DNA from: Propionibacteriaceae bacterium
GTDB taxonomy: Bacteria; Actinomycetota; Actinomycetes; Propionibacteriales; Propionibacteriaceae
Assembly: GCA_031256725.1 (NCBI GenBank)
Contig: JAIRQE010000021.1
Coordinates: 30,001-62,000, forward strand
Reading direction: 5' to 3'
DNA length: 32,000 bases
Of the stretch, positions 3,169 to 18,739 are shown piece after piece. Below the pieces are notes generated by a model. The model saw only the letters and a list, made by a program, of their open reading frames with translations, did no database searches and had not been told where the DNA came from. Made by a program: the position numbers and the translations under genes. The first letter of the stretch is position 1; every line of letters starts with the position of its first letter.

Positions 3169-4326
3169 TTACGAGTTCCGCAGCCGACTTACGAAGATGG
3201 TATCCACTAGGCGCTGTGTTGCATTACCGCCGCATCGGTTGAGGAATCTTTCGTGGAATTCGCTCCATTGCTGCTCGTCAATGGTCGTGGTACCAAGCTG
3301 TGTCAGTAGGCTCTCAAGGTCGGTGACTACTGGGCCATAGGTGTAAGCCTCAAAGGGGTAGTAGAACCCACGCCAGTCGTCGTACTGCTCGAAATCGGGG
3401 GTATAGAAGACAACCGGTTTTCTCAGAAGGGCGTTGTCGAAGATTGCTGAGGAATAGTCGGTGATGAGCAGGTCGGAAACCAGGAGAAGATTATTGAACT
3501 CAGGGTAATCCGATAGATCCACAATCTGGTCGCGGAGGTTCTGGGGGATCTCCCATCTTTGTCGAACAAAGGGATGCATCTTGATGACGAAGAGATCCTT
3601 GTCCCCCAAGGCGGTAGCGACAAGGTCGAGGTTGAGGTACTCCTGTGGATAGTGAACCCCTCGGTCTCCACCACTGCGAAAAGTCGGCGCGAACAGAATA
3701 ACGCGACGATCCTTCAGTACGGGGAACTCCGCAAAGAGGTCCGCCCTTACGCGGGCTTTAGTTGCTTCGTCGAAGAAAAGATCTGAACGGGGTACACCAG
3801 TGGGGTGAACCGTCTCAAGGTCAACCCCGTATGCTTCAGCATAAAGGGGCCTGATCTCATCCGAACTAACAATGGTATCCGTATAGTTGCGATGGGTTAA
3901 TGTTGTGGGGGTTGTACCGCCTGGTTTACCGAGGCAACTGAATCCCATTCGTTTCATCGCTCCCAACGCGTGCCACACCTGAATGAGTCGAGCACCACGG
4001 CGAATCGGAAACACATAGATCATGGGGAAGACGTCATCAATGAGGGTGTACTCGGTATGAGCAATCTCAGCGGCAAGCCTCAAACGGTTCATGAAACCCC
4101 GGAATCCGCGAGCCTGAGTGAAAAACTCCTTAGTCGAATAGATTTCAGTATTCAGAGCATCACGAATATAGCGAAGGTTGTCATGAAGAACCAAGCCCCT
4201 GGTACAAATGAAAATCACAGTGTTGGGTTTCACTGGGTGAAATAGACAGACCGCGCCGTAAACCAGCAGGTAGGGCAGTCGAGCAAGCCGTTGAAGCCAC
4301 GGGTACAGGAAATCAGGAATCTTCAC
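3169..4326 (-). CDS. CDP-glycerol/alditol-phosphate glycerophosphotransferase, TagB/TagF family (385 aa), paralogue of 291-1457
   Basis: Motifs IQVWHALGAMKRMG, FAPTFRSGG, KMHPF and LITDYSSAIFDNALLRKPVVFY. The start overlaps the stop of the upstream SDR gene by 4 nt. Confidence 0.85.
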   Translation of the reverse strand: MKIPDFLYPWLQRLARLPYLLVYGAVCLFHPVKPNTVIFICTRGLVLHDNLRYIRDALNTEIYSTKEFFTQARGFRGFMNRLRLAAEIAHTEYTLIDDVFPMIYVFPIRRGARLIQVWHALGAMKRMGFSCLGKPGGTTPTTLTHRNYTDTIVSSDEIRPLYAEAYGVDLETVHPTGVPRSDLFFDEATKARVRADLFAEFPVLKDRRVILFAPTFRSGGDRGVHYPQEYLNLDLVATALGDKDLFVIKMHPFVRQRWEIPQNLRDQIVDLSDYPEFNNLLLVSDLLITDYSSAIFDNALLRKPVVFYTPDFEQYDDWRGFYYPFEAYTYGPVVTDLESLLTQLGTTTIDEQQWSEFHERFLNRCGGNATQRLVDTIFVSRLRNS

Positions 4327-5384
4327 GACGTGATCTCTCGTAGGATAGCGATAGTACGTTCGATGCCTTCGTCAAGGTCGAAGAGGGGTTTCCACCCCAG
4401 GTCGGCCATCTTGCCCCCATCCATTACTGCCCGACTCGCGACCGAGTATCCTGCACGTTCTGCTTCAGAGGGAAGCTCGAAAACGACCTCAAGACCAGCC
4501 TTACCAGCAACCTTCGCCGCCAGGTCCTTGAGGTGAATATCACCTGATGGGTGTGCAAGGTTGTACGCCTGACGACACCCTCCCAAAAACAAGCAGGTTA
4601 GGATCCCTGAGACAACATCCCCGACATGGAGATAGGAAAAGTACTGGTTCCCCTCAGATTTGAGTACGATGTTTTCCCCAGCGACTGCCTTGAGAAGGAA
4701 CTGTGACAGGGCCTTGGAGTCATTCAGCTTCATCGTCGGGCCGAAGACCCGCGGCAACCGGGGAATCACCACGTCGCGGCTGTGGTGTACCGAGAAAGCC
4801 TGGCACAGTGCCTCGCCTGTCCTCTTGGATTCGGGGTACCCAGCTCGCAAAGTATTGCAGTCGATGTACCCCATGTCCGTTTCTGTGAACCTTTCGATCC
4901 CAGAGCGGTTATCTCCATAGATTTCCACTGTTGAGAGGAAGAGGGTACGACTGGCCTCAGTACGTGCCGCAAGATCCAACATGGAGAAGGTACCGTGAAC
5001 ATTGGTCGTGATCGTACCAATGGGATCCTGGGAATAGGTCAGAGGGTGGGTGTTGCTTGCTGCATGGATCACCCAATCTCCTTGGTCGAAATCCAGAGGG
5101 TTGCCATTGAGGTCAACGGAGGTCATTTTTAGATTGGGATGACCCTCATAAGGCGCGAAACGGGCAGTCATCCCGGCAAGATCCCGAGCAAGGGCGTGAA
5201 TCGTACAGTTCAACCCGTTGGTATTGTGGGCCATGAGGACGTCGACGAGGAAGCTTCCGATCATCCCTGAGGCGCCTGAGAGAACCAGCGTCGTGTTGGC
5301 TAAGGCCCGCCATGGCAGATCAAGTTCAGCAACCCTACGAATATCATCGCGGTAGATGCGACTGTTGAGAATATGGATACTCAT
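4323..5384 (-). CDS. NAD(P)-dependent extended SDR (epimerase/dehydratase family); candidate reductase of the CDP-alditol pathway
   Basis: Gly-rich Rossmann motif VLSGASGMIGSFL near the N-terminus and catalytic YxxxK (YPESK). 4-nt overlaps with both neighbours suggest translational coupling with the cytidylyltransferase. Confidence 0.8.
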   Translation of the reverse strand: MSIHILNSRIYRDDIRRVAELDLPWRALANTTLVLSGASGMIGSFLVDVLMAHNTNGLNCTIHALARDLAGMTARFAPYEGHPNLKMTSVDLNGNPLDFDQGDWVIHAASNTHPLTYSQDPIGTITTNVHGTFSMLDLAARTEASRTLFLSTVEIYGDNRSGIERFTETDMGYIDCNTLRAGYPESKRTGEALCQAFSVHHSRDVVIPRLPRVFGPTMKLNDSKALSQFLLKAVAGENIVLKSEGNQYFSYLHVGDVVSGILTCLFLGGCRQAYNLAHPSGDIHLKDLAAKVAGKAGLEVVFELPSEAERAGYSVASRAVMDGGKMADLGWKPLFDLDEGIERTIAILREITS

Positions 5385-6121
5385 TGAGAGTGGCCCTCAG
5401 GTATCGGGTCCACACGAGTCAACCCGGTCACGTAGGCATGGAAGAGTGCCAGATCATCAGGGGTTGTCAGCTTGATGTTCTTGTCTGATCCAGCCGCAAA
5501 GTGGAGACGTATACCTAGGTCAACCATCATGGTGTTTGTGTACGAGGTCGGCCCGATCCCGATGCCCTTCTCGAAGGCTTCGACGTAGCTGGAATGCAGG
5601 ACGTCATATCGATAGGCCTGGGGGGTGGAGACTCGACGCAGGGTCTCGCGTGGGATGTACTCCAGGGTTGTTGTGGGGTCTTTAGGATCGATACGGAAGA
5701 TTTGCTCGTTATAGGGCAGCGAGGTCACAGCATTCCCGTGGCGACTGCACACAGCTAGGACATCAGAGACCACCCCCGGGTCGACGAGTGGACGGATACC
5801 GTCATGGATGATGATGGTCTCATCGTCGCGGCAACGGTTCCTCAGTTGGAGTACCCCCTTGAAGATCGACTCTTGGGCTGAGGCTCCGCCAGAGATAATC
5901 CAATCCAACTTCGTGATCCCGAACTGGGTGACATAATCCGAGAGGATTTCGTGCCATCCATCAATGCATACGACTCCAATCGAATCGACACAGGGATGAT
6001 CTTGAAAGGCCTCAAGGGTATAGATGATGATCGGTTTGTCTTCAACCAAAGTAAACTGCTTGGGTACCTCAAGGCCCATTCGAGACCCAGAGCCGCCAGC
6101 AATGATGATAGCTGTTGTCAT
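5381..6121 (-). CDS. IspD/TarI-family sugar/alditol-phosphate cytidylyltransferase
   Basis: MTTAIIIAGGSGSRMG..VPKQF is the IspD/TarI signature. Also IIHDGIRP, STPQ and KLTTPDDL. I moved the start to ATG at complement 6119-6121 (AGGAG 10 nt upstream). The longer track ORF (to 6187) would overlap the preceding gene and adds non-homologous residues. Confidence 0.85.
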   Translation of the reverse strand: MTTAIIIAGGSGSRMGLEVPKQFTLVEDKPIIIYTLEAFQDHPCVDSIGVVCIDGWHEILSDYVTQFGITKLDWIISGGASAQESIFKGVLQLRNRCRDDETIIIHDGIRPLVDPGVVSDVLAVCSRHGNAVTSLPYNEQIFRIDPKDPTTTLEYIPRETLRRVSTPQAYRYDVLHSSYVEAFEKGIGIGPTSYTNTMMVDLGIRLHFAAGSDKNIKLTTPDDLALFHAYVTGLTRVDPIPEGHSQ

Positions 6122-6146
6122 CGGCCTCACGCTCCTAGAGTCAATC

Positions 6147-7232
6147 CTAGGACCTCCCAAGACGCTTGGCGACCCGTACGACATCAATGGGTAGGCGCAG
6201 GATGTTTAGCACCGTCAGGTTCCTCAGAATCATAGCGCAGAGTTCACCTGCTGCACCTACTGCTCCTTCGCGAAGTTTAGGTAGACGGAAAAATGCTCCG
6301 ACAAGGGGAATCGTATGGAGGTCGCGCACACGATTAAAGGTTTCCTTATCGTAATCTTCGAGCCAGTTTCGTACTGCCTTCAAGGCGGGAACCTGTATAT
6401 CTGGATCCCTGGTGCGTAGAGCCGCATCCACGCGGGCCCAAATATCGCGGTGCATCGCTCGGGCAAGATAACGGTCGAAGAGGGAGTCATCGGCGAGGAT
6501 TGTGCGCGCCATGCGTACCATCTCGAAAAGATCACTGAGGACGACACCAGGTGGCGCTATCACACGGCTTGTGAGGGAAGCCCGCTTATCATCCTGGCAA
6601 CGATAGTGGTAGACATCCTGGTCGACGGTGTGGATCTTCTTAGCGTGAGAGTAGGCGCGCAATACGAAAGGCTGATCCTCTCCCAGACGAATGTGCTCAG
6701 GGAAGAAGGTGGCTTCGATGAGGTCTCTGCGATAGAGCTTCGCCCAGGGGCCAAGGGATTGCATGAGTTCAGGATGGGTGGCCAGGGTTTTGTTTCCAGG
6801 TTCAGTAAGATCGTTGGCAGCGTGGCTGATGGGCCAGACTCCAGTCGAGTTGAAACGTTGAGAATTCCCAGTGATGAGGTCAGCATCATTATCCTTGGCT
6901 GCGGTGTACATCACCTCAAGGGCATCAGGCAGAAGGATGTCATCAGCATCAACAAAACAGATATAGTCACCATCGGCAGATCGGATGCCGTGATTACGAG
7001 CAGCGGACGGACCCTGGTTGTGTTGCCCGACTAACCTGAATCGGGGGTCATCAATCCCAGCACAGATCTCGGCAGTGTTATCGGTGGATCCATCATCAAC
7101 CAAGATGAACTCAATGTTGTTGAGGGTCTGAGCTTGTAAGCCCGCGACAGTTCCACCTATGTACTTTGCAACGTTGTACATCGGCACAATGACACTGACG
7201 ACCGGTTTCGGTGGACTTGCTGCGGCTGTGAT
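6147..7232 (-). CDS. Glycosyltransferase family 2, paralogue 2 of 3; probable non-canonical ATC start (or N-terminally damaged)
   Basis: The track ORF starts at GTG 7187 (MPMYNV...). That would delete the conserved VSVIVP beta-strand present in both paralogues. The frame stays open upstream to TAA at 7257-7259 and encodes ...ITAAASPPKPVVSVIVPMYN, but contains no ATG, GTG or TTG. AGGGAGGGAG lies 5 nt upstream of ATC (complement 7230-7232). Confidence 0.7.
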   Translation of the reverse strand: MTAAASPPKPVVSVIVPMYNVAKYIGGTVAGLQAQTLNNIEFILVDDGSTDNTAEICAGIDDPRFRLVGQHNQGPSAARNHGIRSADGDYICFVDADDILLPDALEVMYTAAKDNDADLITGNSQRFNSTGVWPISHAANDLTEPGNKTLATHPELMQSLGPWAKLYRRDLIEATFFPEHIRLGEDQPFVLRAYSHAKKIHTVDQDVYHYRCQDDKRASLTSRVIAPPGVVLSDLFEMVRMARTILADDSLFDRYLARAMHRDIWARVDAALRTRDPDIQVPALKAVRNWLEDYDKETFNRVRDLHTIPLVGAFFRLPKLREGAVGAAGELCAMILRNLTVLNILRLPIDVVRVAKRLGRS

Positions 7233-7328: not shown

Positions 7329-8438
7329 TTAACCCCTTTTTCTCTTGAGCATCTTCATTGGTACGCTCACCACAAGGCGACCAACAAAGCTCATAAAAGT
7401 GGTGAGGTTCATCTTGGATAGGAGACTACGAAGAATCCGATAGTAGACTCCGCGTGCCTCATGATGGATCCTGTGAACCTGGGAGAGCAAGCAAGCCAGA
7501 GGATAGGAGTATAAAGCAGGCACCCTGTTGAATTGATCATCATCGAAATGGGTCAGCCAGGTTCCCAAAGAGTTCAGGGCTGTGATCTGAATTCTTGGGT
7601 CCCCAGTTTTCAAAGCGCTCTTGGCTCGCGGCCATACATCGGCGTAAAGCACCCTCGTAAGATAGGCATCCATGAGATCAGGATCCTCAAGAACCTGGGC
7701 GGACAGACGTACCATCTCATAGAGATCCTCAAGAGCCTGGATGGGATTCGTCATAGCAGTCTGTGTGAGGGATTGCGCGCCCTGATTTCGTACCCGATAG
7801 TGGTAGACCACTGCATCCACAGTTACGATAGTTGCCGAGTGAGCTAGAGCAAAGAGTACAAGAGGCTGATCCTCACCCAGGCGAATAGTCTCCGGGAAGA
7901 AGACTCCATCAAGGAGGGAACGGCGGAAGAGCTTGGCGCAGGGGCCAAGGGCATGGATGAGTTCAGGATGGGTTGCGAGGGTTTTGATCCCAGGAGTCGA
8001 AACTTTGTGGCGTGCATAGCTGGGCAGTGGCCAACTGCGATCCCTATCGAAACGCCGAGTATCACCTGTGACCATGTCAGCGCCATGGTCGTGAGCAGCT
8101 TTGTACATCACCTCCAAGGCTGAGGGGTCGAGGCGGTCATCCCCATCAACAAAGCAGATGTACTCACCCTGAGCCAGCTTCAATCCATGGTTACGTGCGG
8201 CAGACGGACCCCGATTTTCCTGGGTGACAAGCCGAAATCGAGGATCCTGGTCGATGGTGGTTTCCACGATCGGCACTGTGTTATCCGTGGAGCCATCGTC
8301 AATCAGGAGGTACTCAACCCCCTCCAGTTTCTGGGCTTTGAGGGAGTCCAGGGTCTCAGCTATGTACAGGGAAAGGTTGTACATAGGTACGATTACGCTC
8401 ACTGAAGGGGCGATGCGAGGATTCACCATATCGCTCAT
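7329..8438 (-). CDS. Glycosyltransferase family 2, paralogue 3 of 3
   Basis: VSVIVPMYNLSLYI...LLIDDGSTDNT, VDGDD and GPCAKLFRRSLLDGVFFPETIRLGEDQPLVL. Basic C-terminal tail. Confidence 0.85.
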   Translation of the reverse strand: MSDMVNPRIAPSVSVIVPMYNLSLYIAETLDSLKAQKLEGVEYLLIDDGSTDNTVPIVETTIDQDPRFRLVTQENRGPSAARNHGLKLAQGEYICFVDGDDRLDPSALEVMYKAAHDHGADMVTGDTRRFDRDRSWPLPSYARHKVSTPGIKTLATHPELIHALGPCAKLFRRSLLDGVFFPETIRLGEDQPLVLFALAHSATIVTVDAVVYHYRVRNQGAQSLTQTAMTNPIQALEDLYEMVRLSAQVLEDPDLMDAYLTRVLYADVWPRAKSALKTGDPRIQITALNSLGTWLTHFDDDQFNRVPALYSYPLACLLSQVHRIHHEARGVYYRILRSLLSKMNLTTFMSFVGRLVVSVPMKMLKRKRG

Positions 8439-8456: not shown

Positions 8457-9662
8457 TCAGGGTAAGGGCAGCTCCAAGGGAGCGTCGGGGCGCAGGTGTG
8501 GATGCCACTGTGACAGGAATTCCAAAACCGCGTAGAGCTCCTTCCAATCCTTGGCACTGTAGTGCTGAATTCCGGCTTCCTCCCATACATCAAGTGCATG
8601 GTCGCGGATGAAGTGTGGAACATAGGGAAGGAACTGAGGGTTCAGTTTCTCCATGAAATCCAGGGAAACACTGTCAGCCATAGCCACGTAAGATTCAGGG
8701 ATTCCTCTGTTGAGAATCTGAGCAGCCTCCATCCCAACATATTTCACGAAGTAGAGGGAGAATAGGTCGATGAGATGAGTCTCCCCGAAGTTGAATGGCG
8801 TAATGGGGGGCGTGAGTCCATCCATAGTGAAGTCGATGCCCTTGTATTTCATGTCGAAGACCTTCAAGAACAACTGCTTCTGATAGAGCTTGGAGTCACC
8901 GACATTAGCAAGGGACTTCAGTGACTTCTCGAGCAGTTCTGGGTAGGTACGATAGGTCAACAATGCCATGGTCGTACCCAGCATTCCGAAACTCAGCATG
9001 TTCAAATTCCTAATCCCCGCATAGATAAACGGCGTTGGATAACAGAAATTGCGCTGGGAAAAAAACCAATTCTTTTGGCTCCACAGATCCTCAAGCGGAG
9101 TTCCAAATGCGTGGTAGTCAGTTCCTAACAACTCTTTGTAGAGCAATGAGGCGATGCCCATGAAAACCCCAGTGTTGGCGTTGAGCTTCAGGTCTACCAG
9201 ATTCGTAGTAACAATATAGGGTGAGAATTCTTCAAAGAAAACGCGCTCTCGAGCAAAGAGTCCGCCATAGTCAAGAGAAACTAAAGAGATGTCGTCTGGT
9301 AGAAGGGCTTTCACTGACAGAGAGTCAAGTCCACCAGAGAAGTTAAGTGTCACCTTATTTGGTGTGGTGGGAAAGGTTGGTGCTGTTGAAGTTATTGACT
9401 TTACGGAAGGCCGAATCCCTGTAAAGGAGTGAATCTTGGACAGTGTATGTTCACTGACAGGCAGGTCGATATGCACGTCGTCATAAGCCTTGCCAAAGAG
9501 GGTAGATAGAGCCAATGCAATGATGTCATCATGAGGCCGGTGAGCGTGGCTGAGTTTGAAGTACAACGGTGACTCCGTTTTGCGAAGTTTCCCACGCTTC
9601 ACGAAAACGCAGGAAATCTCATTTTCTGTGATAGTGAAATCATTAAATCTAACTCGTGTCAT
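8457..9662 (-). CDS. Uncharacterised PP-loop (SGGxDS) ATP-pyrophosphatase-superfamily protein with a QueC/ExsB-like core
   Basis: KVTLNFSGGLDSLSVKALL is a beta-strand, SGGLDS, helix arrangement. About 15 residues later comes VSLDYGG, which parallels QueC SGGQDS...FDYGQ. Then NTGVFMGIASLLY...GTPLED parallels QueC NTFVPGRN...ETD. The ~95-aa N-terminal and ~170-aa C-terminal regions match nothing I recognise. Confidence 0.55.
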   Translation of the reverse strand: MTRVRFNDFTITENEISCVFVKRGKLRKTESPLYFKLSHAHRPHDDIIALALSTLFGKAYDDVHIDLPVSEHTLSKIHSFTGIRPSVKSITSTAPTFPTTPNKVTLNFSGGLDSLSVKALLPDDISLVSLDYGGLFARERVFFEEFSPYIVTTNLVDLKLNANTGVFMGIASLLYKELLGTDYHAFGTPLEDLWSQKNWFFSQRNFCYPTPFIYAGIRNLNMLSFGMLGTTMALLTYRTYPELLEKSLKSLANVGDSKLYQKQLFLKVFDMKYKGIDFTMDGLTPPITPFNFGETHLIDLFSLYFVKYVGMEAAQILNRGIPESYVAMADSVSLDFMEKLNPQFLPYVPHFIRDHALDVWEEAGIQHYSAKDWKELYAVLEFLSQWHPHLRPDAPLELPLP

Positions 9663-9746: not shown

Positions 9747-11849
9747 TCAAACGGTGGTTGGAGGTACTAGCGACAGAATAAACTGCAACCCACATGATAT
9801 ATGAGCAGCATCACCAGCATGTGAGGTCAAGTCTAGAGGACGCTGACTCAATGGTGATCCAGGCTCAATAATGCCCCAAATCTTAACCCCCAAACTGGAA
9901 TAGTCAGCATACTTTGATGGAAGGTAGGGGTTCGTGCCATGGATATCGCTGACTTGAGCATCCGGCACAATTAACCAGTCCATGGATCGAGCGATAGACA
10001 CGAACTTTACATAGTTGACATAGCGATTGACCTCCACGCAGGACTGCAATCCATAGTGATGGACATTGGAACGAACACTGGACAATTGGCGAGATGGGAC
10101 ATACAAATGCACCATAACCCTGATGCGTACATCATCAGGTAACTCGCGAAGACTGGTCAACACATCGTCAACGCCACGCTTGGGGTAGACCCACCCGAAG
10201 TACCCAAGATGAATGCGCCCATCCTGGTTGCGAGGAACTGGTGGTGCAGCCTCAAGGATGTGATCTGGTACCCCAGGATGAGGGATCACCACGCAGTGTT
10301 CCCGCGCTCGCTGACGTAAAGCCATGTCAGGTACCAATGACAACATCAAATCACGTTGATTTTCATTAGTGAAAATGATCTGATCAGCAAGGGCATAGGT
10401 GATCCACTCGATCCACTCGTGGATTGTGCGAGCCGCTGATAGATCGAAACCAGCGAGGCGAACCTGATCGTCAATCTCGTGGCGTTCCAGAAAATCCCCC
10501 AAGGGACCATCTTTGAGTGTTCCATTGATATTGATCGACACCGGATCAGAGAACTCCGCAATCCATCTAATCTCGGGACGGCGTACCTTGATCAGCGCAG
10601 CGAGACCATGTGAGAAGGGCCAATGCACCCGAGAATAGAGTTTCTTGTAAGGACGTGTACGATCCTTCTCCAGCCCAGCCCATTGTCGAGCACCCTCACT
10701 ACAGAATCTGGCTAACCCTTCCCAGGTAGATGAACGTGGAGCCCCATCAATGCGGACAAACTTCCCACGAAGATGGGAGTCGATCCGATGTGTCGAGGTG
10801 TCAATATCGCGAATTCCTGTCATTGAATGGGTGATGATGTCGAAGGGTTCATCCCAGTTGGCTAGGCGTTTTGCGGCAGTGATGGCAGATGCATCGTTGT
10901 AGGGAGTATAGGTGTAGCATGCCGCAAGTGTTGGGGCAGCCCTGTGATTGAAAATCTCTGTTTGCGCAGGGGTCTGGAATTTGAGAATACGCCCACGTAG
11001 TTCCTCGAAGCGATCAGGATGGTCATAGGCAGCATCCCCCAACAAGCCAATTTGGCCACGGATAGAGCGGTGAACCAAGGATCGCAGACGCCATGGCACC
11101 TTCTTCAGTCCCAGAAGGATGTCGATGACACGGAAACGACCAGTGATGAAGTTCTCATCGATTCGTCGAGAGAGTGACCCTGTTCGTACTAGTCGATAGT
11201 AGAAAGCCTTCTCACTAATGCGGGGGATGTAGACCTTCAAGCGATTGCGAGTGACCACTTGAAGCCAGAAGACCACATCCAAGCCGGAATCAATCGTCTC
11301 GTCGTAGCCCACCTCGCGGGCCAACAGTGTCGACACTGCCTTACCAGAATTCGCTGACTCCACCCAGACCTTGCGTGCTGAGATTAGCTTGCCCGCAAAG
11401 GGTGTCATGCGTCGACACAGATAGTTATTGAATCTCCGACTTGGTTCGCTGGGGTTCTCGGCCACATCACAGATATAGGTCATGACAACCCTCTTTGGTG
11501 CGCAATGGGTCAACAGAGTCTCCAGATAGCTAGGCGACACCCAGTCATCGTCGTCGATGTTGGTGAAATACTCTTTCGTGGCTGCCGCCAATCCTATGTT
11601 TGTACTGAGAGAAATCCCTGGTTTCTCGCTGTGAAGCACCCGAATAATGAGATCGGGGTGTTGTTCTTGGAAGGAGGCGATCAGAGCAGTGGTACCGTCG
11701 TCCCCACCGTTAACACAACACAGGATTTCGAATAGGGAGCGATCGAGGGTTTGGGCAGCCAGGCTAGTAAGAGCCTTCGAGATACGGTTCACGCCCTTGA
11801 ATGTGGGCATGACAACGGTGATTCCTCGCTCCAACTGTTCGCTACCCAT
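9747..11849 (-). CDS. Two-domain glycosyltransferase: N-terminal GT2 (GT-A) fused to a C-terminal GT-B/GT4-like domain (700 aa), copy 1
   Basis: N-terminal domain: ITVVMPTFKG...LCCVNGGDDGT and NIDDDDW (DxD). C-terminal domain: HLGYFGWVYPKRG and NPYLPSKYADYSSLGVKIWG, which resemble the GT4 (WbuB-like) PSK-x-x-E/D-Y-x-x-x-G motif. About 55-60% identical by eye to 12277-14355. Confidence 0.75.
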   Translation of the reverse strand: MGSEQLERGITVVMPTFKGVNRISKALTSLAAQTLDRSLFEILCCVNGGDDGTTALIASFQEQHPDLIIRVLHSEKPGISLSTNIGLAAATKEYFTNIDDDDWVSPSYLETLLTHCAPKRVVMTYICDVAENPSEPSRRFNNYLCRRMTPFAGKLISARKVWVESANSGKAVSTLLAREVGYDETIDSGLDVVFWLQVVTRNRLKVYIPRISEKAFYYRLVRTGSLSRRIDENFITGRFRVIDILLGLKKVPWRLRSLVHRSIRGQIGLLGDAAYDHPDRFEELRGRILKFQTPAQTEIFNHRAAPTLAACYTYTPYNDASAITAAKRLANWDEPFDIITHSMTGIRDIDTSTHRIDSHLRGKFVRIDGAPRSSTWEGLARFCSEGARQWAGLEKDRTRPYKKLYSRVHWPFSHGLAALIKVRRPEIRWIAEFSDPVSININGTLKDGPLGDFLERHEIDDQVRLAGFDLSAARTIHEWIEWITYALADQIIFTNENQRDLMLSLVPDMALRQRAREHCVVIPHPGVPDHILEAAPPVPRNQDGRIHLGYFGWVYPKRGVDDVLTSLRELPDDVRIRVMVHLYVPSRQLSSVRSNVHHYGLQSCVEVNRYVNYVKFVSIARSMDWLIVPDAQVSDIHGTNPYLPSKYADYSSLGVKIWGIIEPGSPLSQRPLDLTSHAGDAAHISCGLQFILSLVPPTTV

Positions 11850-11854
11850 AGTGC

Positions 11855-12193
11855 TTATCTCTTGGTACTGAGCGACTGTACCTGGAGGTTCAGGTCGGCA
11901 ACTTCTAGTGTTAAATTGCTGATTGTTTCCACTAGTATGCCCGTGTCGGCGGTGATCCCTGCTTTACGCTTTTCATCCCAGGCATGCTTCTCCACGATCC
12001 ACCAGATGCGTACTGTGAAAAGCCCAGCAAGACCAGCCAGAAATGCGAGCCAGAGGTTGGATGTTGCCAGATAGGCCAAGACCCCAGCTGCGAGCATTCC
12101 TAGCCCGACTATACCGAGAGGTACCAGAGTACTACCAGTGGGATTCTTGAGTAGTTTTCGGATCAGATTCTTGCCATTGCTCACCACTGACAT
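11855..12193 (-). CDS. Small membrane protein: 2 TM helices plus a cytoplasmic heptad-like C-terminal tail (112 aa), copy 1
   Basis: TM hairpin LVPLGIVGLGMLAAGVLAYLA / LWLAFLAGLAGLFTVRIWWIV, then EKHAWDEKRK and ...ISNLTLEVADLNLQVQSLSTKR. AGGAGG lies 6 nt before the ATG. The stop is 5 nt before the GT fusion start. Paralogue at 14362-14685. Confidence 0.7.
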   Translation of the reverse strand: MSVVSNGKNLIRKLLKNPTGSTLVPLGIVGLGMLAAGVLAYLATSNLWLAFLAGLAGLFTVRIWWIVEKHAWDEKRKAGITADTGILVETISNLTLEVADLNLQVQSLSTKR

Positions 12194-12244
12194 CTGCCAC
12201 CTCCTGAGTTGTCGGTGTCACAGGCGAGTTCACCGATTCGCTGA

Positions 12245-12253
12245 ATTCTAGCA
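12245..12253 (-). promoter_or_regulatory. Candidate extended -10 element (TGCTAGAAT) upstream of module copy 1
   Basis: The minus strand reads TGCTAGAAT (TGn + TAnnnT) about 50 nt upstream of the ATG at 12193, inside the 83-bp spacer between the two modules. No convincing -35. Confidence 0.25.
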
Positions 12254-12276
12254 GTTGGGGTGGGGGTTCCCGGGTC

Positions 12277-14355
12277 TCATTCGGCGATGATCTGCCGTAG
12301 GGCGGCCAGGGCTTCAGTACAGTCGCCAGCTTCAGTACTCAAATCGAGATGACTGTGACTCAATGGGCTTCCTGGTTCTATAAGACCCCAGATTTTGATC
12401 CCTAATGAGCTATAGTCAGCGTATTTGGAAGGTAGATAAGGGTTACTACCCAGATCGGCTGTGACTAGGGAGTCTGCAACCAGAAGCCAGTCCATTGTCC
12501 TCGCGATGCGAACAAATTCCATGTAGTTAACGTACTGGTGAACCTTGACACTGGTATCAAGGTGTTGATGGTGGATTAGGTGGCGTACCTCATTGAGTTG
12601 GTGGTGGGGAATGAACATGTGAACGCAGACCTTTCTACGCTCAGATTTGGGCATCGCTGTCAAAGCATCAAGAATCTCACCGACCCCACGTTTGGCATAG
12701 AACCATCCAAAATACCCAATGTGCTTGCGGCCATCATTGATTGCAGGTAGATCTTCCACAGCATCTAGGATCTGCTGTGGTACCCCAGGATGAGGGATGG
12801 CCACAGAGATCTTTCGAACACGATCAGCCAATTCCGAATGTGGAATGCGTGAGATCATATACGACATCTGATTATCGTTGGTGAAGATAATCTGATCAGC
12901 CAAGGCATAAGCCACCCATTCCAGCCATTCGTTGGCCGTACGCGCGCCTGCGAGGTCGAAGCCCTGCTTGGCCACGCGTTTTTCGATCTTCTTCCGCTCG
13001 GGGAAATCACCAAGTACTCCGGGACGCAACTCTCCCTTGATGTCGACTGATAGGGGATCGGAGAACTCTGCGATCCAATAGATGCTGGGTTGCTTGACTT
13101 TGATAAAGGCTGCTAACGCGTGAGAGAAAGGCCATTGAACCCTGCTGTAGAGTTTCTTGTACGGTGGGCGGTCGCTTTGCAGGTTCTTCCATGCGGCAGC
13201 ACCCTCATGACAGAAGTGTGCCATTCCTGCAGCACTATTGGTGGAGGGAGTTCCCTCAACAGTGATGCATTGCCCACGAAGGTGTGCATCAATGAGATTT
13301 GTTGATCGATCAAATTGACGAAGTTTGCCAAAAGAATGCGTAATGATATCGAATGGCTCCCCCATCTCAGCGAGGCGCTTTGCTGCTGTGATCGCAGAGG
13401 CATCGTTGTAAGGAGTGTAGACATAGCATATAGCAAGGGTTGTTGCTGCTTTGTGGTTAAAGATTGCAGTACGTTCAGGGATTGCGATCTGTTGCACGTG
13501 GTCAGCCAGTTCCTGGTACCTGTCGGGCCACTCAAACCCCACCGCACCAAGGTGGCCAATCTGACCGCCAATAGAATTGGATATCAATGTAGAGTACCGA
13601 GGATAGAGTTTTTCGAGACGCTGAAGTCTCTCAATGACGACAAAGCGATTAGTGAGAAACTCTTCATCAATCGAACGTGACATTGATTCTGGGCGAACAT
13701 GACGGTAGTAAATTGCGTGGTCAATAATAGAAAGAACATGGACACGTAAGGAGTTACGAGTCACCAGTTCTGTCCAGAAGACCACATCAAGACCTGAAGT
13801 GATCTCCACGTCATAGAGGACCTCTAGAGCCAGGCGAGTCGAAGCAGCTTTAGCACCATCAGCCGAACCCACGGGGACATCATTGGCGGTCACAGTCTGC
13901 CCTGCGAAAGGAAAGGTTGCGATATTGAGGTAGTTATCAAACCTGCCTGTGGGCTGGTCGACCTCCTCTGGAATATTGCATACATAGGTCATTACCACGG
14001 TATTTTCGCGGCAATGGGCCAGCAGTGATTCGAGGTAGCGGGGCGAGATCCAGTCGTCGTCGTCCACATTGGTGAAGTAGGAAAATTGTGCCTGGTGGAA
14101 TCCAAGATTTCGGGCTCGCCCAAGGCCTGGAACCTCGCTATGAAGGATGCGTATCCCCAGATTTGGATGGCGATCCATAAAGGCAGTGATCAGAGCTTCA
14201 GTGCCATCTTCTGGCCCATTGAGGCAGCACAACACCTCAAACTGGGATCTATCGAGGGTTTGTGTCGTCAGACACTCGAGTAGTCGCCCGATTCTGTCAG
14301 CACCCATATAGGTGGCTACGATAACGCTGATCCCCCAGCGCAGATCCTTCGACAC
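12277..14355 (-). CDS. Two-domain glycosyltransferase: GT2 (GT-A) fused to a GT-B/GT4-like domain (692 aa), copy 2
   Basis: ISVIVATYMG...LCCLNGPEDGT, NVDDDDW, HIGYFGWFYAKRG and NPYLPSKYADYSSLGIKIWG. Collinear with 9747-11849 over its full length. Confidence 0.75.
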   Translation of the reverse strand: MSKDLRWGISVIVATYMGADRIGRLLECLTTQTLDRSQFEVLCCLNGPEDGTEALITAFMDRHPNLGIRILHSEVPGLGRARNLGFHQAQFSYFTNVDDDDWISPRYLESLLAHCRENTVVMTYVCNIPEEVDQPTGRFDNYLNIATFPFAGQTVTANDVPVGSADGAKAASTRLALEVLYDVEITSGLDVVFWTELVTRNSLRVHVLSIIDHAIYYRHVRPESMSRSIDEEFLTNRFVVIERLQRLEKLYPRYSTLISNSIGGQIGHLGAVGFEWPDRYQELADHVQQIAIPERTAIFNHKAATTLAICYVYTPYNDASAITAAKRLAEMGEPFDIITHSFGKLRQFDRSTNLIDAHLRGQCITVEGTPSTNSAAGMAHFCHEGAAAWKNLQSDRPPYKKLYSRVQWPFSHALAAFIKVKQPSIYWIAEFSDPLSVDIKGELRPGVLGDFPERKKIEKRVAKQGFDLAGARTANEWLEWVAYALADQIIFTNDNQMSYMISRIPHSELADRVRKISVAIPHPGVPQQILDAVEDLPAINDGRKHIGYFGWFYAKRGVGEILDALTAMPKSERRKVCVHMFIPHHQLNEVRHLIHHQHLDTSVKVHQYVNYMEFVRIARTMDWLLVADSLVTADLGSNPYLPSKYADYSSLGIKIWGLIEPGSPLSHSHLDLSTEAGDCTEALAALRQIIAE

Positions 14356-14361
14356 GATAAC

Positions 14362-14685
14362 CTAAGTGGTCTTGTTCGACAGCGCCTGTACCTGGATGTT
14401 CAGGTCTGCAATTTCGAGTGAGAGAACGTTGATTGTTGATACGAGCTGTCCTGCGGAATTCACGATGTTTCCTATCCTCTTCTCGGCTCTGTAGCGACGC
14501 TCAGTAATCCACCAGATTCTCATGAGAATCACAGTGACTATTACTCCTAAGATAGTCAGGAATATGTTGGACGTACCAAGGAAAACGAGTACTCCAGCCA
14601 TGACAACCGTGCTCGCAACAATGGCGATCCACATCTTCGGTGATCGACGCAGCTTCGCCAGGGCATCAAATCCAGGTGCGGACAA
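14362..14685 (-). CDS. Small membrane protein: 2 TM helices plus a heptad-like C-terminal tail, copy 2
   Basis: Shares with copy 1 the N-terminal basic segment (LAKLRRSP vs LIRKLLKNP), GTSN between the TMs, RIWWI(T/V)E after TM2, and L(S/T)LE(I/V)ADLN(I/L)QVQ(A/S)LS. I prefer the TTG start at complement 14683-14685, because GGAGG lies 8 nt upstream within the last codons of wecC. The track start (14700) would overlap wecC. Confidence 0.65.
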   Translation of the reverse strand: MSAPGFDALAKLRRSPKMWIAIVASTVVMAGVLVFLGTSNIFLTILGVIVTVILMRIWWITERRYRAEKRIGNIVNSAGQLVSTINVLSLEIADLNIQVQALSNKTT

Positions 14686-14690
14686 TTGTG

Positions 14691-15926
14691 TTACCTCCAA
14701 GTTCCTCGAGTATCAATGATCGCAACATCCTCACGCAACTTTGGCTCTTCAAGGAACTCCTGATGGTCGACTAGGAGTACCACGATGTCGGCTTGGTTGA
14801 GAGCGGTCTCGTAGTCCACCAACTCCACATTGGGCATCTGAGAAAGCGCAGGTGGTAGTTGTGTGATATTGGGTTCGACCGTGAGAATTCTACCAGCAGG
14901 GAATTGGGCAGAGAGACTTTCAACTACTTCCCTTGCTGGGGAACCACGCAGATCGTCGATATTCGGTTTGAAGGCGAGACCAAGAGCAGCAATGGTTGGG
15001 CTTTCATGACCTCCAAGGCTTGCCTTGACCTTGGCGAGTACCCAACCAGGCTTGGAATCGTTGACTTCACGGGAGACTCTGATGAGGCGGGAGTTTTCGG
15101 GGTCAGCGGCCACAATGAACCACGGATCAACCGCAATGCAGTGTCCGCCCACTCCAGGGCCAGGGCTCAAGATATTCACTCGCGGATGATGGTTGGCGAG
15201 TTCGATGACCTCCCAAACATCCATCCCAAGGTTGTCGCAGATCAGGGAGAGTTCGTTGGCGAAAGCGATGTTGACATCCCTGAAAGAGTTCTCAACACAC
15301 TTGGCCATCTCGGCGGTTGTGGCATCGGTCTCATGGATCTCACCTTTGCAAATGATCCCATAGAGTTCCTTGGCGCGCGTCGTGGCTGAAGGGGTTAACC
15401 CTCCAACAATTCGGTCATTGGAAACGAGTTCTTCGAGAACATGTCCTGGGAGTACACGTTCTGGGCAGTGCGCCACATCAACGAGGAGAGTCCCTTGATC
15501 ATCAAGCAAATCTGGTCGAGCTTCTGAGATCCATACACCGACCAGTTCGCTTGTACCAGGAGGCGAAGTCGATTCAAGTATGACCAATGCCCCAGGGAAC
15601 AAGTGGGGGGCTAAGCCCTGTACTGCTGAATGGATGTAACTCAAATCCGCAGTCTTGTCGGGATTAAAGGGGGTCGGAACGGCGATGATTGTTGCATCAG
15701 CCTTCTCAGGAGTCAATGCTGCTGTGAGATGACCATCGGCGACTACGGCTGAAAGGTGTTCGGCGAGCCCAGCCTCGACGAAAGGCGCTTCACCTTTGTT
15801 AATGGAGTCCACGAACTCGGGTTTGATGTCAACACCGAAAACCCGTAAACCGTGTTCAGCGAAGACAATGGCCGTGGGCAAACCGGTATAACCAAGGCCC
15901 ATGACACATAACGTACTCATCGTCAT
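14691..15926 (-). CDS. wecC: UDP-N-acetyl-D-mannosamine dehydrogenase
   Basis: N-terminal LCVMGLGYTGLPTAIVFAEHG (NAD fold), INKGE, and GGHCIAVDPWFI, which matches the WecC/Cap5O signature. The start is chosen at the ATG with GAAGGG 8 nt upstream; the track start GTG 15935 is also possible. Confidence 0.85.
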   Translation of the reverse strand: MTMSTLCVMGLGYTGLPTAIVFAEHGLRVFGVDIKPEFVDSINKGEAPFVEAGLAEHLSAVVADGHLTAALTPEKADATIIAVPTPFNPDKTADLSYIHSAVQGLAPHLFPGALVILESTSPPGTSELVGVWISEARPDLLDDQGTLLVDVAHCPERVLPGHVLEELVSNDRIVGGLTPSATTRAKELYGIICKGEIHETDATTAEMAKCVENSFRDVNIAFANELSLICDNLGMDVWEVIELANHHPRVNILSPGPGVGGHCIAVDPWFIVAADPENSRLIRVSREVNDSKPGWVLAKVKASLGGHESPTIAALGLAFKPNIDDLRGSPAREVVESLSAQFPAGRILTVEPNITQLPPALSQMPNVELVDYETALNQADIVVLLVDHQEFLEEPKLREDVAIIDTRGTWR

Positions 15927-16014
15927 CAGATGCACCCTTCATTGTTTGGCACCACGTCTCCCAAATGAGGAGTTAGGTTACTGATCGCGCCAGTCTATCA
16001 GTACGGGGTTATCT

Positions 16015-17163
16015 CTAGACTGGTGTCCCTACCGCAAGCCATTGGCGAATCGCATCAAGAGTCTGATGGGCGGCCGTACCATCTCCATAGGGATTCTCGG
16101 CATGAGCCATCCGTGCATACTCGCCTGCATCGTGGAGGAGTGCGGTCGCCCTTGTCACAATCAGATCCTCATTGTGACCCACGAGTTCCGCCGTACCCGC
16201 AGCAACCCCTTCTGGTCTTTCGGTGTCTTCACGGAGTACCAACACAGGCTTTCCAAGAGCTGGTCCTTCTTCCTGGAGGCCACCAGAATCGGTGAGAAGG
16301 ATCTTCACACGAGCCATGAGTTTGGCCATTTCGAAGTACCCCAGTGGCTCAGTCAGAATCACATTGGGGAGGTCCTCTAGTACTGGAACGAAAAATTCCC
16401 GGACTGCGGGGTTCGCGTGCATGGGGAAGACGAAATATGTCTCGGGTTCCTGGATGGCGAGGCGGCGAAGAGCCTTGGCAATCTCCCGCATAGGATCACC
16501 CCAGGATTCGCGGCGATGGGAGGTAACCAAAACCAGGGGACGATCCCCTGTGATGAGGGAAGCAATGGTGGGATCGCTTACCTCAATCGGCATATCCACC
16601 GCCAGGCGTAGAGCATCAATGACTGGGTTTCCAGTGATGATGATCTTCTCAGAGGGGATTCCACAAGCCAGGAGGTTGTCCCGATTACCTTCGGTAGCCG
16701 CCAAGTGCAGGGTCGCAATCTGGGAGAGTAGACGCCTGTTGCCTTCCTCGGGGAAGGGGGAGGTGATGGATTCTGTACGAAGACCAGCCTCGACGTGTAC
16801 CACAGGTACCTTCTCGTAGAAGGCTGCCAGGCCAGCCGCCATTGCTGAGGTTGTGTCCCCCTGTACGAATACTGCCGCAGGAGGGTTCTTGTGAAGAAGG
16901 GGGGCCAAGCGGGTCATAGTCTTGCCAGCGATCTCGCTGAGGCTCTGCCCATGGGCAAAGATGTCGAGGTTGGCATCTTCATGGATACCGAAACCAGCGT
17001 TGATGGGGGCAACCATATCTGGGTGTTGTCCGGTGAGAACAACGGAACAGTTCATGTCCTCAGCTTCACGGAAAGCACGGATCAGGGGAGCACATTTGAT
17101 GGCTTCCGGACGCGTACCATAGACAACCATCATGGTTGGGTGGTTGTTGTGTGTCGTAGTCAT
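16015..17163 (-). CDS. wecB: UDP-N-acetylglucosamine 2-epimerase (non-hydrolysing)
   Basis: MMVVYGTRPEAIKCAPLI, HVEAGLRT, PFPEEGNRRL and LTDSGGLQEEGPALGKPVLVLREDTERPEG are canonical WecB/MnaA motifs. Confidence 0.9.
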   Translation of the reverse strand: MTTTHNNHPTMMVVYGTRPEAIKCAPLIRAFREAEDMNCSVVLTGQHPDMVAPINAGFGIHEDANLDIFAHGQSLSEIAGKTMTRLAPLLHKNPPAAVFVQGDTTSAMAAGLAAFYEKVPVVHVEAGLRTESITSPFPEEGNRRLLSQIATLHLAATEGNRDNLLACGIPSEKIIITGNPVIDALRLAVDMPIEVSDPTIASLITGDRPLVLVTSHRRESWGDPMREIAKALRRLAIQEPETYFVFPMHANPAVREFFVPVLEDLPNVILTEPLGYFEMAKLMARVKILLTDSGGLQEEGPALGKPVLVLREDTERPEGVAAGTAELVGHNEDLIVTRATALLHDAGEYARMAHAENPYGDGTAAHQTLDAIRQWLAVGTPV

Positions 17164-17169
17164 AGTGGC

Positions 17170-17940
17170 TCAACTAGAAGAGTCTTTAGAGTAATATTCG
17201 ATACCCTCATCAATGGGTCCATCGAATAGGAGTCTACCGTGGTCAATCACAATGGCACGCTTGCAGAACTTGGCTGCCTGATCAAGAGAGTGGGTCACGA
17301 AAAGCATGGTCACATTGTCGCCATTGATGATGTCCTGCATACGAGCCAGACTCTTGGCTGAGAAGCGACGGTCACCCACTGCGAGAACCTCATCAAGGAT
17401 CAGGATGTCAGGCTTGAGCGAAGAGGCGAACGCGAAACCTAGACGGGTACGCATCCCCGTGGAGTAGGTACGCATAGGCTGATCGATGTACTGCCCAACC
17501 TCAGCAAAATCCAGGATCTCGGGCATGATCTCATTGATCTCTGAGGTTGAAAGCCCCCAGAGGTGGCCCCTCAGAATAAGGTTCTCACGACCCGTGAGGA
17601 GTTGGTCGAAGCCGACGGAGAGATCCAGCAACGCGGAGATCCTGCCGTGTACCTCAACTGTTCCAGAGTTGGGGGTACATACCCCTGTGGTGATCTTGAG
17701 GGCCGTACTCTTTCCTGCTCCATTGGAACCCAGGAATGCGACCGATTCCCCACGTTTGATCGTGAAGCTCAAGTCGTTGTTGGCCTCAACTTTTTCGTAC
17801 TTGGTCTTTGGCCACACCGCAGAGAGCAGACGCTGACGATCCGACTTGTAGAGGCGGTAGGTCTTGGTGACATGGGCGAATCTGACCGCAATCGGATTCG
17901 TGGAGTCATTGGTCTGGATGATGGTTGCCTTAGAGGACAT
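17170..17940 (-). CDS. Polysaccharide/teichoic-acid export ABC transporter, ATP-binding protein (TagH/TarH/Wzt-like, short form)
   Basis: Walker A GSNGAGKST, signature YSTGM, Walker B ILILDEVLAVGD and an H-loop (THS). 11-nt overlap with the permease gene. Confidence 0.85.
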   Translation of the reverse strand: MSSKATIIQTNDSTNPIAVRFAHVTKTYRLYKSDRQRLLSAVWPKTKYEKVEANNDLSFTIKRGESVAFLGSNGAGKSTALKITTGVCTPNSGTVEVHGRISALLDLSVGFDQLLTGRENLILRGHLWGLSTSEINEIMPEILDFAEVGQYIDQPMRTYSTGMRTRLGFAFASSLKPDILILDEVLAVGDRRFSAKSLARMQDIINGDNVTMLFVTHSLDQAAKFCKRAIVIDHGRLLFDGPIDEGIEYYSKDSSS

Positions 17941-18739
17941 CGGGTACCTCCGGACCTAGACGATGTTGAACACTGACAGCGAGGATGAACATGACCAGGA
18001 ACACACCTAGGAAGGGGAGCAGAAGTTGGGGTTTGTCCCAGACCCAGTAGGTGTCACACAGGGATGCTCGGAAGCTGGTTACAAAGAATGTGATCGGGTT
18101 GAAAGCCATGACGACTTGAAGCCATGTGATTTCAATATTTCCGACATCGAAAATAATACCCGAGAGCCAGAAGAGTGGGGTGGCTAGGGCTTTGATCAGG
18201 TTGTGGAAGTCTCGACTGATGGCGGACAGGGGCGATGTCAGCATCGACCAGACCACCCAAAAGAAGTACATCAGTATTGCCAAAACCGGAAGTTGTAGAG
18301 CATAAATCGTGAAAGGAACCTTACTGAGAATGATCACAATAAAAACCACGATCTGCGAGATCAGGAAGATAAGGAACTCGGCTACCCCGAAGAAGCTGGA
18401 GATCACTGGAATGGGGAAGCGCATCCGGTTCACGAGGAAGCTGTAGCGAGTGTATACATTCGAGCCTGTGGTCAACATACTCGACATGAAGAACCATGGA
18501 ACAAGGCCCACCGTCAGCCATACGATAAAAGGTATCTCGTCAGCCGAGCTTGCCTCTTTTAGTCCAAGCTTGAGAGCGAACCAAAAGACGAAAACATAGA
18601 CAGAAGGGGTGACAATCAACCAGATCCATCCGAGCGCGGCCCCACGGATCTGCTTCTGGAGTTCGGTCACCGCAAGTCGCAAGATTTGCGAACGCCAAAC
18701 CCAGTTATCACGGAAGATTCCCCGAAATGTTTGAATCAT
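17930..18739 (-). CDS. ABC-2 type polysaccharide/teichoic-acid export permease (TagG-like)
   Basis: 269 aa with about six hydrophobic helices. The N-terminus (WRSQILRLAVTELQKQIRGAALGWIWLIVTP) is typical of ABC-2/TagG permeases. It is the first gene of the long minus-strand locus. Confidence 0.8.
   Translation of the reverse strand: MIQTFRGIFRDNWVWRSQILRLAVTELQKQIRGAALGWIWLIVTPSVYVFVFWFALKLGLKEASSADEIPFIVWLTVGLVPWFFMSSMLTTGSNVYTRYSFLVNRMRFPIPVISSFFGVAEFLIFLISQIVVFIVIILSKVPFTIYALQLPVLAILMYFFWVVWSMLTSPLSAISRDFHNLIKALATPLFWLSGIIFDVGNIEITWLQVVMAFNPITFFVTSFRASLCDTYWVWDKPQLLLPFLGVFLVMFILAVSVQHRLGPEVPDVL

Follow-up and report, generated by a model that had tools for sequence, protein, structure and literature searches.

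Among the major anionic polymers in the walls of Actinobacteria and Bacillota are the teichuronic acids, and the question of which enzymes assemble such glycans is raised by a gene cluster in a Propionibacteriaceae genome (assembly GCA_031256725.1, contig JAIRQE010000021.1). We analyzed a stretch of 32,000 nucleotides (nt) of its forward strand, positions 30,001 to 62,000, hereafter the window, and use the window's own numbering throughout. Directly downstream of the genes for an ATP-binding cassette (ABC) exporter of the ABC-2 type (permease and ATPase) and of wecB and wecC, the minus strand carries two collinear modules (14700–12277 and 12193–9747), each encoding a small membrane hairpin protein (small1, small2) and a large protein (big1, big2) that joins two glycosyltransferase (GT) domains. 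With modest confidence, we lean toward reading the modules as ABC-transporter-dependent synthases of a teichuronic-type glycan that contains N-acetylmannosaminuronic acid (ManNAcA), with the hairpin protein tethering the synthase to the membrane.

A preliminary description of the window had placed two adjacent units of ~2.4 kb at 9747–12193 and 12277–14700, each with a hairpin protein of ~110 aa followed 5–6 nt later by a protein of ~700 aa, and the coordinates of all four open reading frames (ORFs) agree with it. Small1 (112 aa, 14362–14700) lies 6 nt before big1 (692 aa, 12277–14355), and small2 (112 aa, 11855–12193) lies 5 nt before big2 (700 aa, 9747–11849), all four on the minus strand. 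An AGGAGG Shine–Dalgarno sequence precedes the ATG of small2 by 6 nt. The start codon of small1 is uncertain: its longest ORF begins with a TTG at 14700 and shares 10 nt (14691–14700) with the 3' part of wecC, and the versions chosen by public gene callers are shorter, at 107 and 90 aa. The two large proteins are 55% identical over 691 aa with one gap (BLASTP, E = 0), the two small ones 47% identical over 86 aa (E = 2e-24), and the DNA of the units 56% identical in comparison with 40–43% in shuffled controls. The large copies are 54% identical to each other and 52–53% to the nearest ortholog in another genome; the small copies show the same pattern, being barely closer to each other than to their orthologs elsewhere. 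Judging from these identities the duplication is old, as had been suggested from an identity of ~55–60% estimated by eye, and the similar divergence of large and small copies fits a duplication that took in both genes of the unit.

The N-terminal half of the large proteins was confirmed as a GT2 domain. PF00535 matched residues 10–120 with 67.3 bits in big2 and 71.0 bits in big1, far above the cut-off of 23.3, and the GT-A domain together with a helical linker covers residues 1–304 of big2 (10938–11849) and residues 1 to ~303 of the collinear big1 (13447–14355). In an AlphaFold2 model of full-length big2, built on 52 homologs (predicted local distance difference test, pLDDT, 95.5), the N-terminal 300 residues superposed on TarS, TarP, and RmlT and also on CgT (Foldseek, E ~1e-12), and the family profile matched TarS, CgT, chondroitin polymerase, and the N-terminal domain of Staphylococcus epidermidis TagF. 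The DxD motif, DDDD at D99–D102 of big2 and within NVDDDDW in big1, aligned with the DSDD of 5hea, and both copies also contain NPYLPSKYADYSSLG. In the family, D99, D102, and D191 (SGLDVVFW) are each conserved to at least 90%, and D191 falls within the region aligned to TarS residues 4–209.

The C-terminal half was harder to place, as residues 300–700 matched no entry of Pfam, NCBIfam, or PDB in sequence searches. Every Foldseek match of the full-length model fell on the N-domain, and the C-domain was therefore modeled separately; it covers residues 305–700 of big2 (9747–10937, stop codon included), and its counterpart in big1 (12277–13446, stop codon included) is collinear with it and keeps every invariant family residue. 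The AlphaFold2 model of the C-domain (pLDDT 96.2) had a two-Rossmann GT-B fold, and its top Foldseek matches were SPS, GlgM, MshA, HepE, glycogen synthase, PglA, and BshA (E = 2e-10 to 1e-8). The best matches, with template modeling scores of 0.55–0.61, were all sugar transferases of GT4, GT5, or GT20. For a profile–profile comparison, we aligned ordinary GT4 genes from the fetched loci, leaving out every family member; hhalign matched the C-domain profile to this alignment with 97.7% probability (E = 1.6e-12, 214 columns) and placed the P-S-K-x-x-D-Y helix (PSK-YADY) on the P-x-K-x-x-E-Y donor-site helix of GT4. About 20 C-domain residues are invariant over 52–56 sequences, both window copies among them, including S406, R407, K421, E432, D435, D489, N495, Q498, G552, D624, D630, N640, P641, K646, and S665 of big2. 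These results support the C-domain as a very divergent GT4-type GT-B domain that escapes every Pfam model. With D99, D102, D191, and the invariant C-domain residues in place, both halves look catalytically intact, and, as the large proteins have no transmembrane (TM) segment of their own, each is predicted to be soluble and to have two active sites for glycosyl transfer.

The fusion proteins belong to a sizable family. With one genome taken per species, a pattern scan gave 392 fusion loci in Actinobacteria, Bacillaceae, and a few Proteobacteria, and an exhaustive HMMER search of 1.84 billion proteins with the C-domain gave 750 representative clusters, 374 of them at E <= 1e-30. Nearly all matches are proteins of ~700 aa with the domain at ~300–690; longer members of 950–1090 aa carry it at ~640–1010. 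Within ~10 kb of the fusion gene, wecC was found in 62 and wecB in 57 of 81 sources (the fetched loci plus the window), and an ABC ATPase in 33, the exporter genes adjoining the modules in the window itself. No ManNAc(A) transferase of the WecG/TagA (GT26) type was found among the Pfam-annotated ORFs of the window. The link to ManNAcA suggested by the window thus holds across the family: the conserved neighbors associate it with synthesis of uridine diphosphate (UDP)-ManNAcA or a related uronic acid and not with polyol phosphate, and this linkage is the main argument that the family transfers ManNAcA.

A precedent for such a protein exists in Pasteurella multocida type B, where BcbC, with a TarS-like GT-A and a WbuB-like GT4 domain, is needed for the capsule of N-acetylglucosamine and ManNAcA (PMC13552107). 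Compared by its published description, BcbC has the same order of a TarS-like GT-A/GT2 domain and a GT4-like GT-B domain in one chain, is accompanied by WecB and WecC homologs (BcbA and BcbB) and an ABC exporter, and is required for a repeat polymer containing ManNAcA, a sugar that gene linkage alone suggests for the window proteins. It differs in having ~310 extra N-terminal residues, a Kdo-lipid (3-deoxy-manno-octulosonic acid) primer, and a Gram-negative host, and no small hairpin partner has been described for it; the longer family members agree with BcbC in size and layout, but their names are uninformative and none is labeled BcbC. The polymer of which BcbC is the proposed synthase has two beta linkages (PMC13552107), unlike the product first envisaged for the window. 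The preliminary description had derived an alternating beta/alpha glycan from an inverting GT2 and a retaining GT4 domain; since an enzyme of the same architecture and with WecB/WecC neighbors is proposed for an all-beta product, neither alternation nor retention can be read from the architecture, and that part of the description is only partly supported.

The arrangement had also been taken as undescribed, and this is correct only in part: dual-domain synthases of ManNAcA glycans, such as BcbC, and the actinobacterial utr clusters are known, so that the arrangement is partly precedented. The utr cluster of Streptomyces makes a hybrid of teichuronic acid and wall teichoic acid (bioRxiv 10.1101/2025.04.24.650519). 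Like the window, it combines genes for uronic-acid nucleotide sugars, a TarS-like GT2, a TarM/GT4-like enzyme, and genes for cytidine diphosphate (CDP)-ribitol in an actinobacterial cluster, and in its product a beta-ManNAc-type uronic acid alternates with an alpha-hexosamine on ribitol-phosphate wall teichoic acid. Unlike the window, it uses separate glycosyltransferases (UtrC, UtrF, and UtrG) and a 2,3-diacetamido uronic acid, which needs extra enzymes absent from the window, and no Streptomyces was found among the best 80 family loci. The glycosyltransferases studied in the teichuronic-acid complex of Micrococcus luteus are reportedly separate proteins of ~52–54 kDa with no genes assigned, whereas the window proteins are fusions of ~700 aa. 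That membrane-located complex makes [4-beta-ManNAcA-(1->6)-alpha-Glc-1]n (PMC3005890), a product of the kind proposed for the window modules. A literature search found no described bifunctional teichuronic-acid synthase from a Gram-positive bacterium, and a 2025 preprint considers the genetics of teichuronic-acid synthesis known only for Bacillus subtilis (bioRxiv 10.1101/2025.04.24.650519). We conclude that the module varies a scheme already known, in which a dual-domain synthase makes an ABC-transporter-dependent glycan, and that the large proteins are new, uncharacterized synthases of this kind.

The kinship of the N-domain admits another function. The fusions could be nonprocessive decorators of teichoic acid, a TarS-like and a TarM-like enzyme in one chain, each fusion adding a defined mono- or disaccharide branch to the poly(polyol-phosphate) of the two TagF-like enzymes, without polymerization of a glycan. 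TarS, TarP, and RmlT, the closest structures to the N-domain, are enzymes of that sort, the profile extends to the N-terminal domain of S. epidermidis TagF, and the window cluster contains two TagF-type transferases and CDP-polyol genes; in Streptomyces, the TarS-like UtrC places the first uronic sugar on ribitol phosphate (bioRxiv 10.1101/2025.04.24.650519). The wider family points the other way. Its neighbors are wecB and wecC and not teichoic-acid genes, tagF-like genes being found near the fusion in 11 and ispD-like genes in 6 of the 81 sources; some members reside in Gram-negative capsule-type loci with KpsC; and many are paired with coiled-coil partners organized like WbdD, which terminates chains and recruits a polymerase (see below). 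BcbC is TarS-like too, yet it is proposed to be a capsule synthase. On balance, we consider pure decoration unlikely.

The small proteins have a basic N terminus and two hydrophobic segments separated by a turn with a conserved YLGTxN, and by the positive-inside rule both ends are predicted to be cytoplasmic. After the second segment both window proteins have RIWWI, R-x-W-W-x-x-E being invariant in their family, and the C-terminal helix, with hydrophobic residues in 3-4-3-4 spacing over about three heptads, ends in L-x-L-E-(V/I)-A-D-L-N-x-Q (LSLEIADLNIQVQ in small1, the partner of big1, and LTLEVADLNLQVQ in small2, the partner of big2). This terminal motif (LxLEVADLNxQV) is the most conserved part of the protein, and the spacer between hairpin and motif varies in length (L087 and L088). 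No domain of the 112-aa proteins exceeded the Pfam or NCBIfam threshold, and they thus contain neither a methyltransferase nor a kinase. A homolog lies 2–17 nt upstream of the fusion in every readable relative with a large protein at least 39% identical to big2 (L002, P0004, P0006, P0008, P0009, P0011, and P0012), mostly directly after wecC. Among 5.8 billion proteins, a single-sequence search with small2 found only itself, and a profile search found 7 clusters, of which two new ones lie directly upstream of fusions 43% and 49% identical to big2. All 11 occurrences are thus immediately upstream of a fusion gene.

In other lineages the same gene position is taken by unrelated proteins. Immediately upstream of the fusion, ~24 of the more distant family genes have a gene for a coiled-coil protein of 240–700 aa, which in several loci again follows wecC. 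The hosts include Arthrobacter, Pseudarthrobacter, Boudabousia, Cellulomonas, Metabacillus, Neobacillus, Rossellomorea, and Fictibacillus, and the partner gene ends ~0–10 nt before the fusion ORF in L030, L031, L034, L035, L037, L039–L042, L045, L046, L051, L052, L056, L060, L063, L064, L069, L072, L073, L076, and L079. These proteins end in a basic–aromatic tail, S[RK][LF]G..[TQ][LI][KR].W, which seems to be a recurrent C-terminal signature; a 112-aa coiled-coil protein of Gottfriedia, 8 nt upstream of its fusion, has a similar tail. An N-terminal S-adenosylmethionine-dependent methyltransferase domain was present in all five Bacillaceae partners scanned, in one of them below the Pfam cut-off, and in none of the five actinobacterial ones. 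The organization resembles that of WbdD in Escherichia coli O9a, a chain terminator whose C-terminal region brings the polymerase WbdA to the membrane (PMC3482155). There, too, a separate coiled-coil protein tethers a soluble polymerase in an ABC-transporter-dependent pathway, and the ~24 upstream genes share with it the coiled coil, a membrane-binding tail, and, in the tested Bacillaceae, the methyltransferase. The window proteins occupy the position of these partners without being homologous to them. They differ from WbdD in their length of only 112 aa, in having no catalytic domain, in a helix of about three heptads, and in being anchored by an N-terminal two-TM hairpin in place of a C-terminal region. 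From position, topology, and strict pairing, the hairpin protein may be a minimal, enzyme-less counterpart of the WbdD-type tether, and by this analogy the strictly paired partner is best seen as a lineage-restricted variant of synthase tethering; that it might control chain length is speculative.

The earlier idea that the small protein always accompanies the fusion survives in part. The pairing is strict wherever the small protein occurs, but it occurs in one Propionibacteriaceae-like clade, that of the fusions at least 39% identical to big2, and it is not a general partner of the family: phmmer and then a hidden Markov model (HMM) of the small protein found no homolog beside ~75 more distant fusions, and a role as universal partner was dropped. 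This distribution leaves room for the view that the small ORFs are unrelated to the synthases and encode, for example, an export or flipping accessory or a regulator of another process, kept by operon inheritance in a single lineage; the family is tiny, and its hosts are closely related metagenome-assembled Propionibacteriaceae-like genomes. Such an explanation sits poorly with a position next to the fusion that persists even where the surrounding genes differ, with the duplication of the small gene together with the large one in the window, with conservation concentrated in the C-terminal helix motif beyond a spacer of variable length, and with a membrane-binding coiled-coil partner at the same gene position in other lineages, and we regard it as quite improbable.

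Beside these small proteins stands a 163-aa protein (public call; the longest ORF has 181 aa) whose two-TM hairpin (YAGTNNVYLSILTG) resembles theirs and whose coiled coil is longer, encoded directly upstream of a 906-aa GT4 protein in the cluster of a relative (L083, 4268–4813, and L084, 2968–3513, both on the minus strand). It matches the small-protein HMM weakly (E = 0.0024) and is a hint that adaptors of the hairpin type may also work with large glycosyltransferases of other kinds.

A third possibility, that the C-domain is a TagF-like or Stealth-like phosphotransferase and the product a poly(glycosyl-phosphate) teichoic acid, is very unlikely and was rejected. In its favor, a GT2-like N-domain followed by a C-domain of ~400 aa parallels the architecture of S. 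epidermidis TagF, the canonical E-x7-E motif is absent, and a capsule multienzyme of the TagF-like kind (8qoy) stands at rank 25 of the fold matches. Against it, the better-ranked matches are all sugar transferases of GT4, GT5, or GT20, the profile matches GT4 and its donor-site helix falls on that of GT4, PF04464 gives no signal, and none of the residues invariant over the 52–56 sequences is a histidine, on which, in conserved form, TagF catalysis is reported to depend.

Several observations weigh against a membrane-tethered ManNAcA-glycan synthase. The best structural neighbors of the N-domain are nonprocessive enzymes, as noted above. The window proteins stay below the Pfam threshold for every GT-B family, and among 56 relatives PF00534 gave weak, subthreshold matches in only 8. 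Where GT4 enzymes have E-x7-E, the family has N640-P-Y-L-P-S-K646-x-x-D649-Y with only the second acidic residue kept, and with N640...K646-x-x-D649 in its place, the mechanism and stereochemistry of GT4 enzymes may not carry over. Of the GT4-like half proposed at first reading, the GT-B fold and its GT4 type stand, whereas no curated threshold is reached and the first glutamate of the motif is not conserved. Some wecC-like neighbors match only at E ~1e-55 and may make a different uronic acid, such as one of the 2,3-diNAc type. Five other GT2 proteins are encoded in the window cluster, any of which could be the ManNAcA transferase. Most family members manage without the small protein, whose tethering role is drawn solely from topology, pairing, and analogy, and the family as a whole is known from genes and predicted folds.

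From the folds and conservation of the domains, the gene linkage, and the small–large pairing, a scheme can nevertheless be drawn, in which donors, processivity, tethering, and attachment site are our suggestions. WecB and WecC would provide UDP-ManNAcA, and the fusion would use it together with a second UDP-sugar. In most known polymers the transfer of ManNAcA from its UDP form proceeds with inversion, and the GT2 domain is for that reason the natural candidate for the ManNAcA step. The cytoplasmic C-terminal helix of the hairpin partner, with its LxLEVADLNxQV motif, would dock the fusion at the membrane, where ManNAcA and the second sugar would be added alternately, on the cytoplasmic face, to a lipid-linked or teichoic-acid-linked acceptor. 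The TagGH-like ABC transporter would then export the finished glycan, which may be a free-standing wall polysaccharide or be built on the polyol-phosphate teichoic acid of the cluster.

Most likely, each of the two diverged modules installs a disaccharide block or linkage of its own, and the two could belong to one longer repeat unit or to two separate glycans. The wall polysaccharide of Cutibacterium acnes, another member of the Propionibacteriaceae, contains in each repeat two beta-ManNAc3NAcA residues and two different alpha-hexoses (PMC6598116); two bifunctional enzymes would fit such a repeat, which provides a precedent for two blocks. A more far-reaching version, which we put forward tentatively and think unlikely to hold in full, makes hairpin and fusion an obligate two-subunit synthase of a hitherto undescribed type, in which the hairpin is a minimal adaptor in the membrane that docks the fusion by its C-terminal helix and whose two copies alternate, so that a four-sugar repeat (beta-ManNAcA-X-beta-ManNAcA-Y) is assembled on the polyol-phosphate teichoic acid and exported with it. 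The variable spacer of the adaptor would then set the distance of the active sites from the membrane and perhaps the chain length.

The modules are part of a single minus-strand operon running from 18739 to ~3169, with further genes past its end at 291–1457 and 1695–2804. A promoter and terminator scan across the operon found no excess over shuffled sequence, and nothing points to the modules as separate transcription units. The operon opens with the ABC-2 type exporter permease (TagG/Wzm-like; 17930–18739, PF01061, E = 1.3e-11) and the exporter ATPase (TagH/Wzt-like; 17170–17940, PF00005, E = 3.9e-20), which at 256 aa lacks a C-terminal carbohydrate-binding extension. The UDP-N-acetylglucosamine 2-epimerase (WecB/MnaA; 16015–17163, PF02350, E = 1.4e-104) and the UDP-ManNAc dehydrogenase-type enzyme (WecC; 14691–15935, three UDPG_MGDP_dh domains, E = 2e-46, 4e-28, and 3e-16) follow, and these ORF coordinates and Pfam matches bear out the position of the modules (small1, big1, small2, big2) directly downstream of wecB/wecC and the exporter.

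Downstream of big2 lies a 401-aa protein (8457–9662) of unassigned family, without a Pfam, NCBIfam, or PDB match. Its SGGLDS motif at approximately residues 99–104 resembles the PP-loop of ATP pyrophosphatases and amidotransferases, and homologs were found near the fusion in four other sources (L004, L025, L046, and L060); it could, as a speculation, modify the uronic-acid carboxyl, in analogy to the glycine addition attributed to BcbH of P. multocida. Two stand-alone GT2 proteins come next, one of 369 aa (7329–8438, PF00535, E = 1.6e-39) and its 346-aa paralog (6147–7187, PF00535, E = 9e-35). They form a second tandem duplication in the operon, being 48% identical over 333 residues and having a helical C-terminal region in common. 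The remaining operon genes are an IspD/TarI-type cytidylyltransferase for CDP-polyol synthesis (5381–6187, TIGR00453, E = 2.7e-45; ribitol-5-phosphate cytidylyltransferase subfamily, E = 2e-31), a reductase or epimerase of the short-chain dehydrogenase/reductase (SDR) type that is likely its partner (4323–5384, NCBIfam SDR families and PF01370), and a TagF/TarL-type polyol-phosphate transferase (3169–4326, PF04464, E = 1.1e-71; TarL model, E = 6e-85, under the equivalog cut-off), all, like the preceding genes, on the minus strand. At the cluster edge are an additional GT2 on the plus strand (1695–2804, PF00535, E = 1.9e-31) and, on the minus strand, a second TagF-type polyol-phosphate transferase (291–1457, PF04464, E = 3.6e-44), 29% identical to that at 3169–4326. 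Elsewhere in the window, two plus-strand genes lie downstream of gyrB, gyrA, and a DUF3566 gene, the first encoding a DUF6020 membrane protein of 645 aa (24754–26691) and the second a GT2 of 318 aa (26733–27689); the two may be a separate pair for surface glycosylation dependent on a polyprenyl-phosphate sugar.

Other family loci vary the theme. Two or three family genes, or a fusion together with a protein consisting of the C-terminal GT-B domain only, are found in L013, L019, L040, and L067 and also in L003, L012, L024, and L032, and such multicopy loci make module multiplication a common feature of the family. A metagenome-assembled genome of Methylococcaceae encodes (L050, 7197–11678 and 13766–15784, plus strand) a 1493-aa fusion with an N-terminal methyltransferase domain, adjoining wecB, wecC, and a KpsC-type (PF05159) gene in a context like that of Gram-negative group-2 capsules. 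In L081 and L082 (~14.6–20.2 kb) and in L086 (1225–2130), the module lies beside LicD-family genes and a phosphonate-type set (phosphoenolpyruvate mutase, thiamine pyrophosphate-dependent decarboxylase, iron-dependent alcohol dehydrogenase, and nucleotidyltransferase), which suggests that the wall polymers of those relatives carry decorations of the phosphocholine or aminoethylphosphonate type.

The findings do not overturn current models. They give concrete, testable candidate synthases of ManNAcA glycans, both in some capsule loci of Gram-negative bacteria and in the cultivable genera Arthrobacter, Nocardioides, Metabacillus, and Neobacillus. With a hairpin in some lineages and a WbdD-like partner in others at one gene position, the Gram-positive ABC-transporter-dependent pathways lend themselves to comparing the tethering of soluble polymerases and perhaps the control of chain length. 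If the obligate two-subunit synthase proved true, this family would supply the teichuronic-acid polymerase long sought in Actinobacteria and many Bacillaceae. The main value of the findings is a candidate family for the synthesis of teichuronic-type polymers in Gram-positive bacteria.

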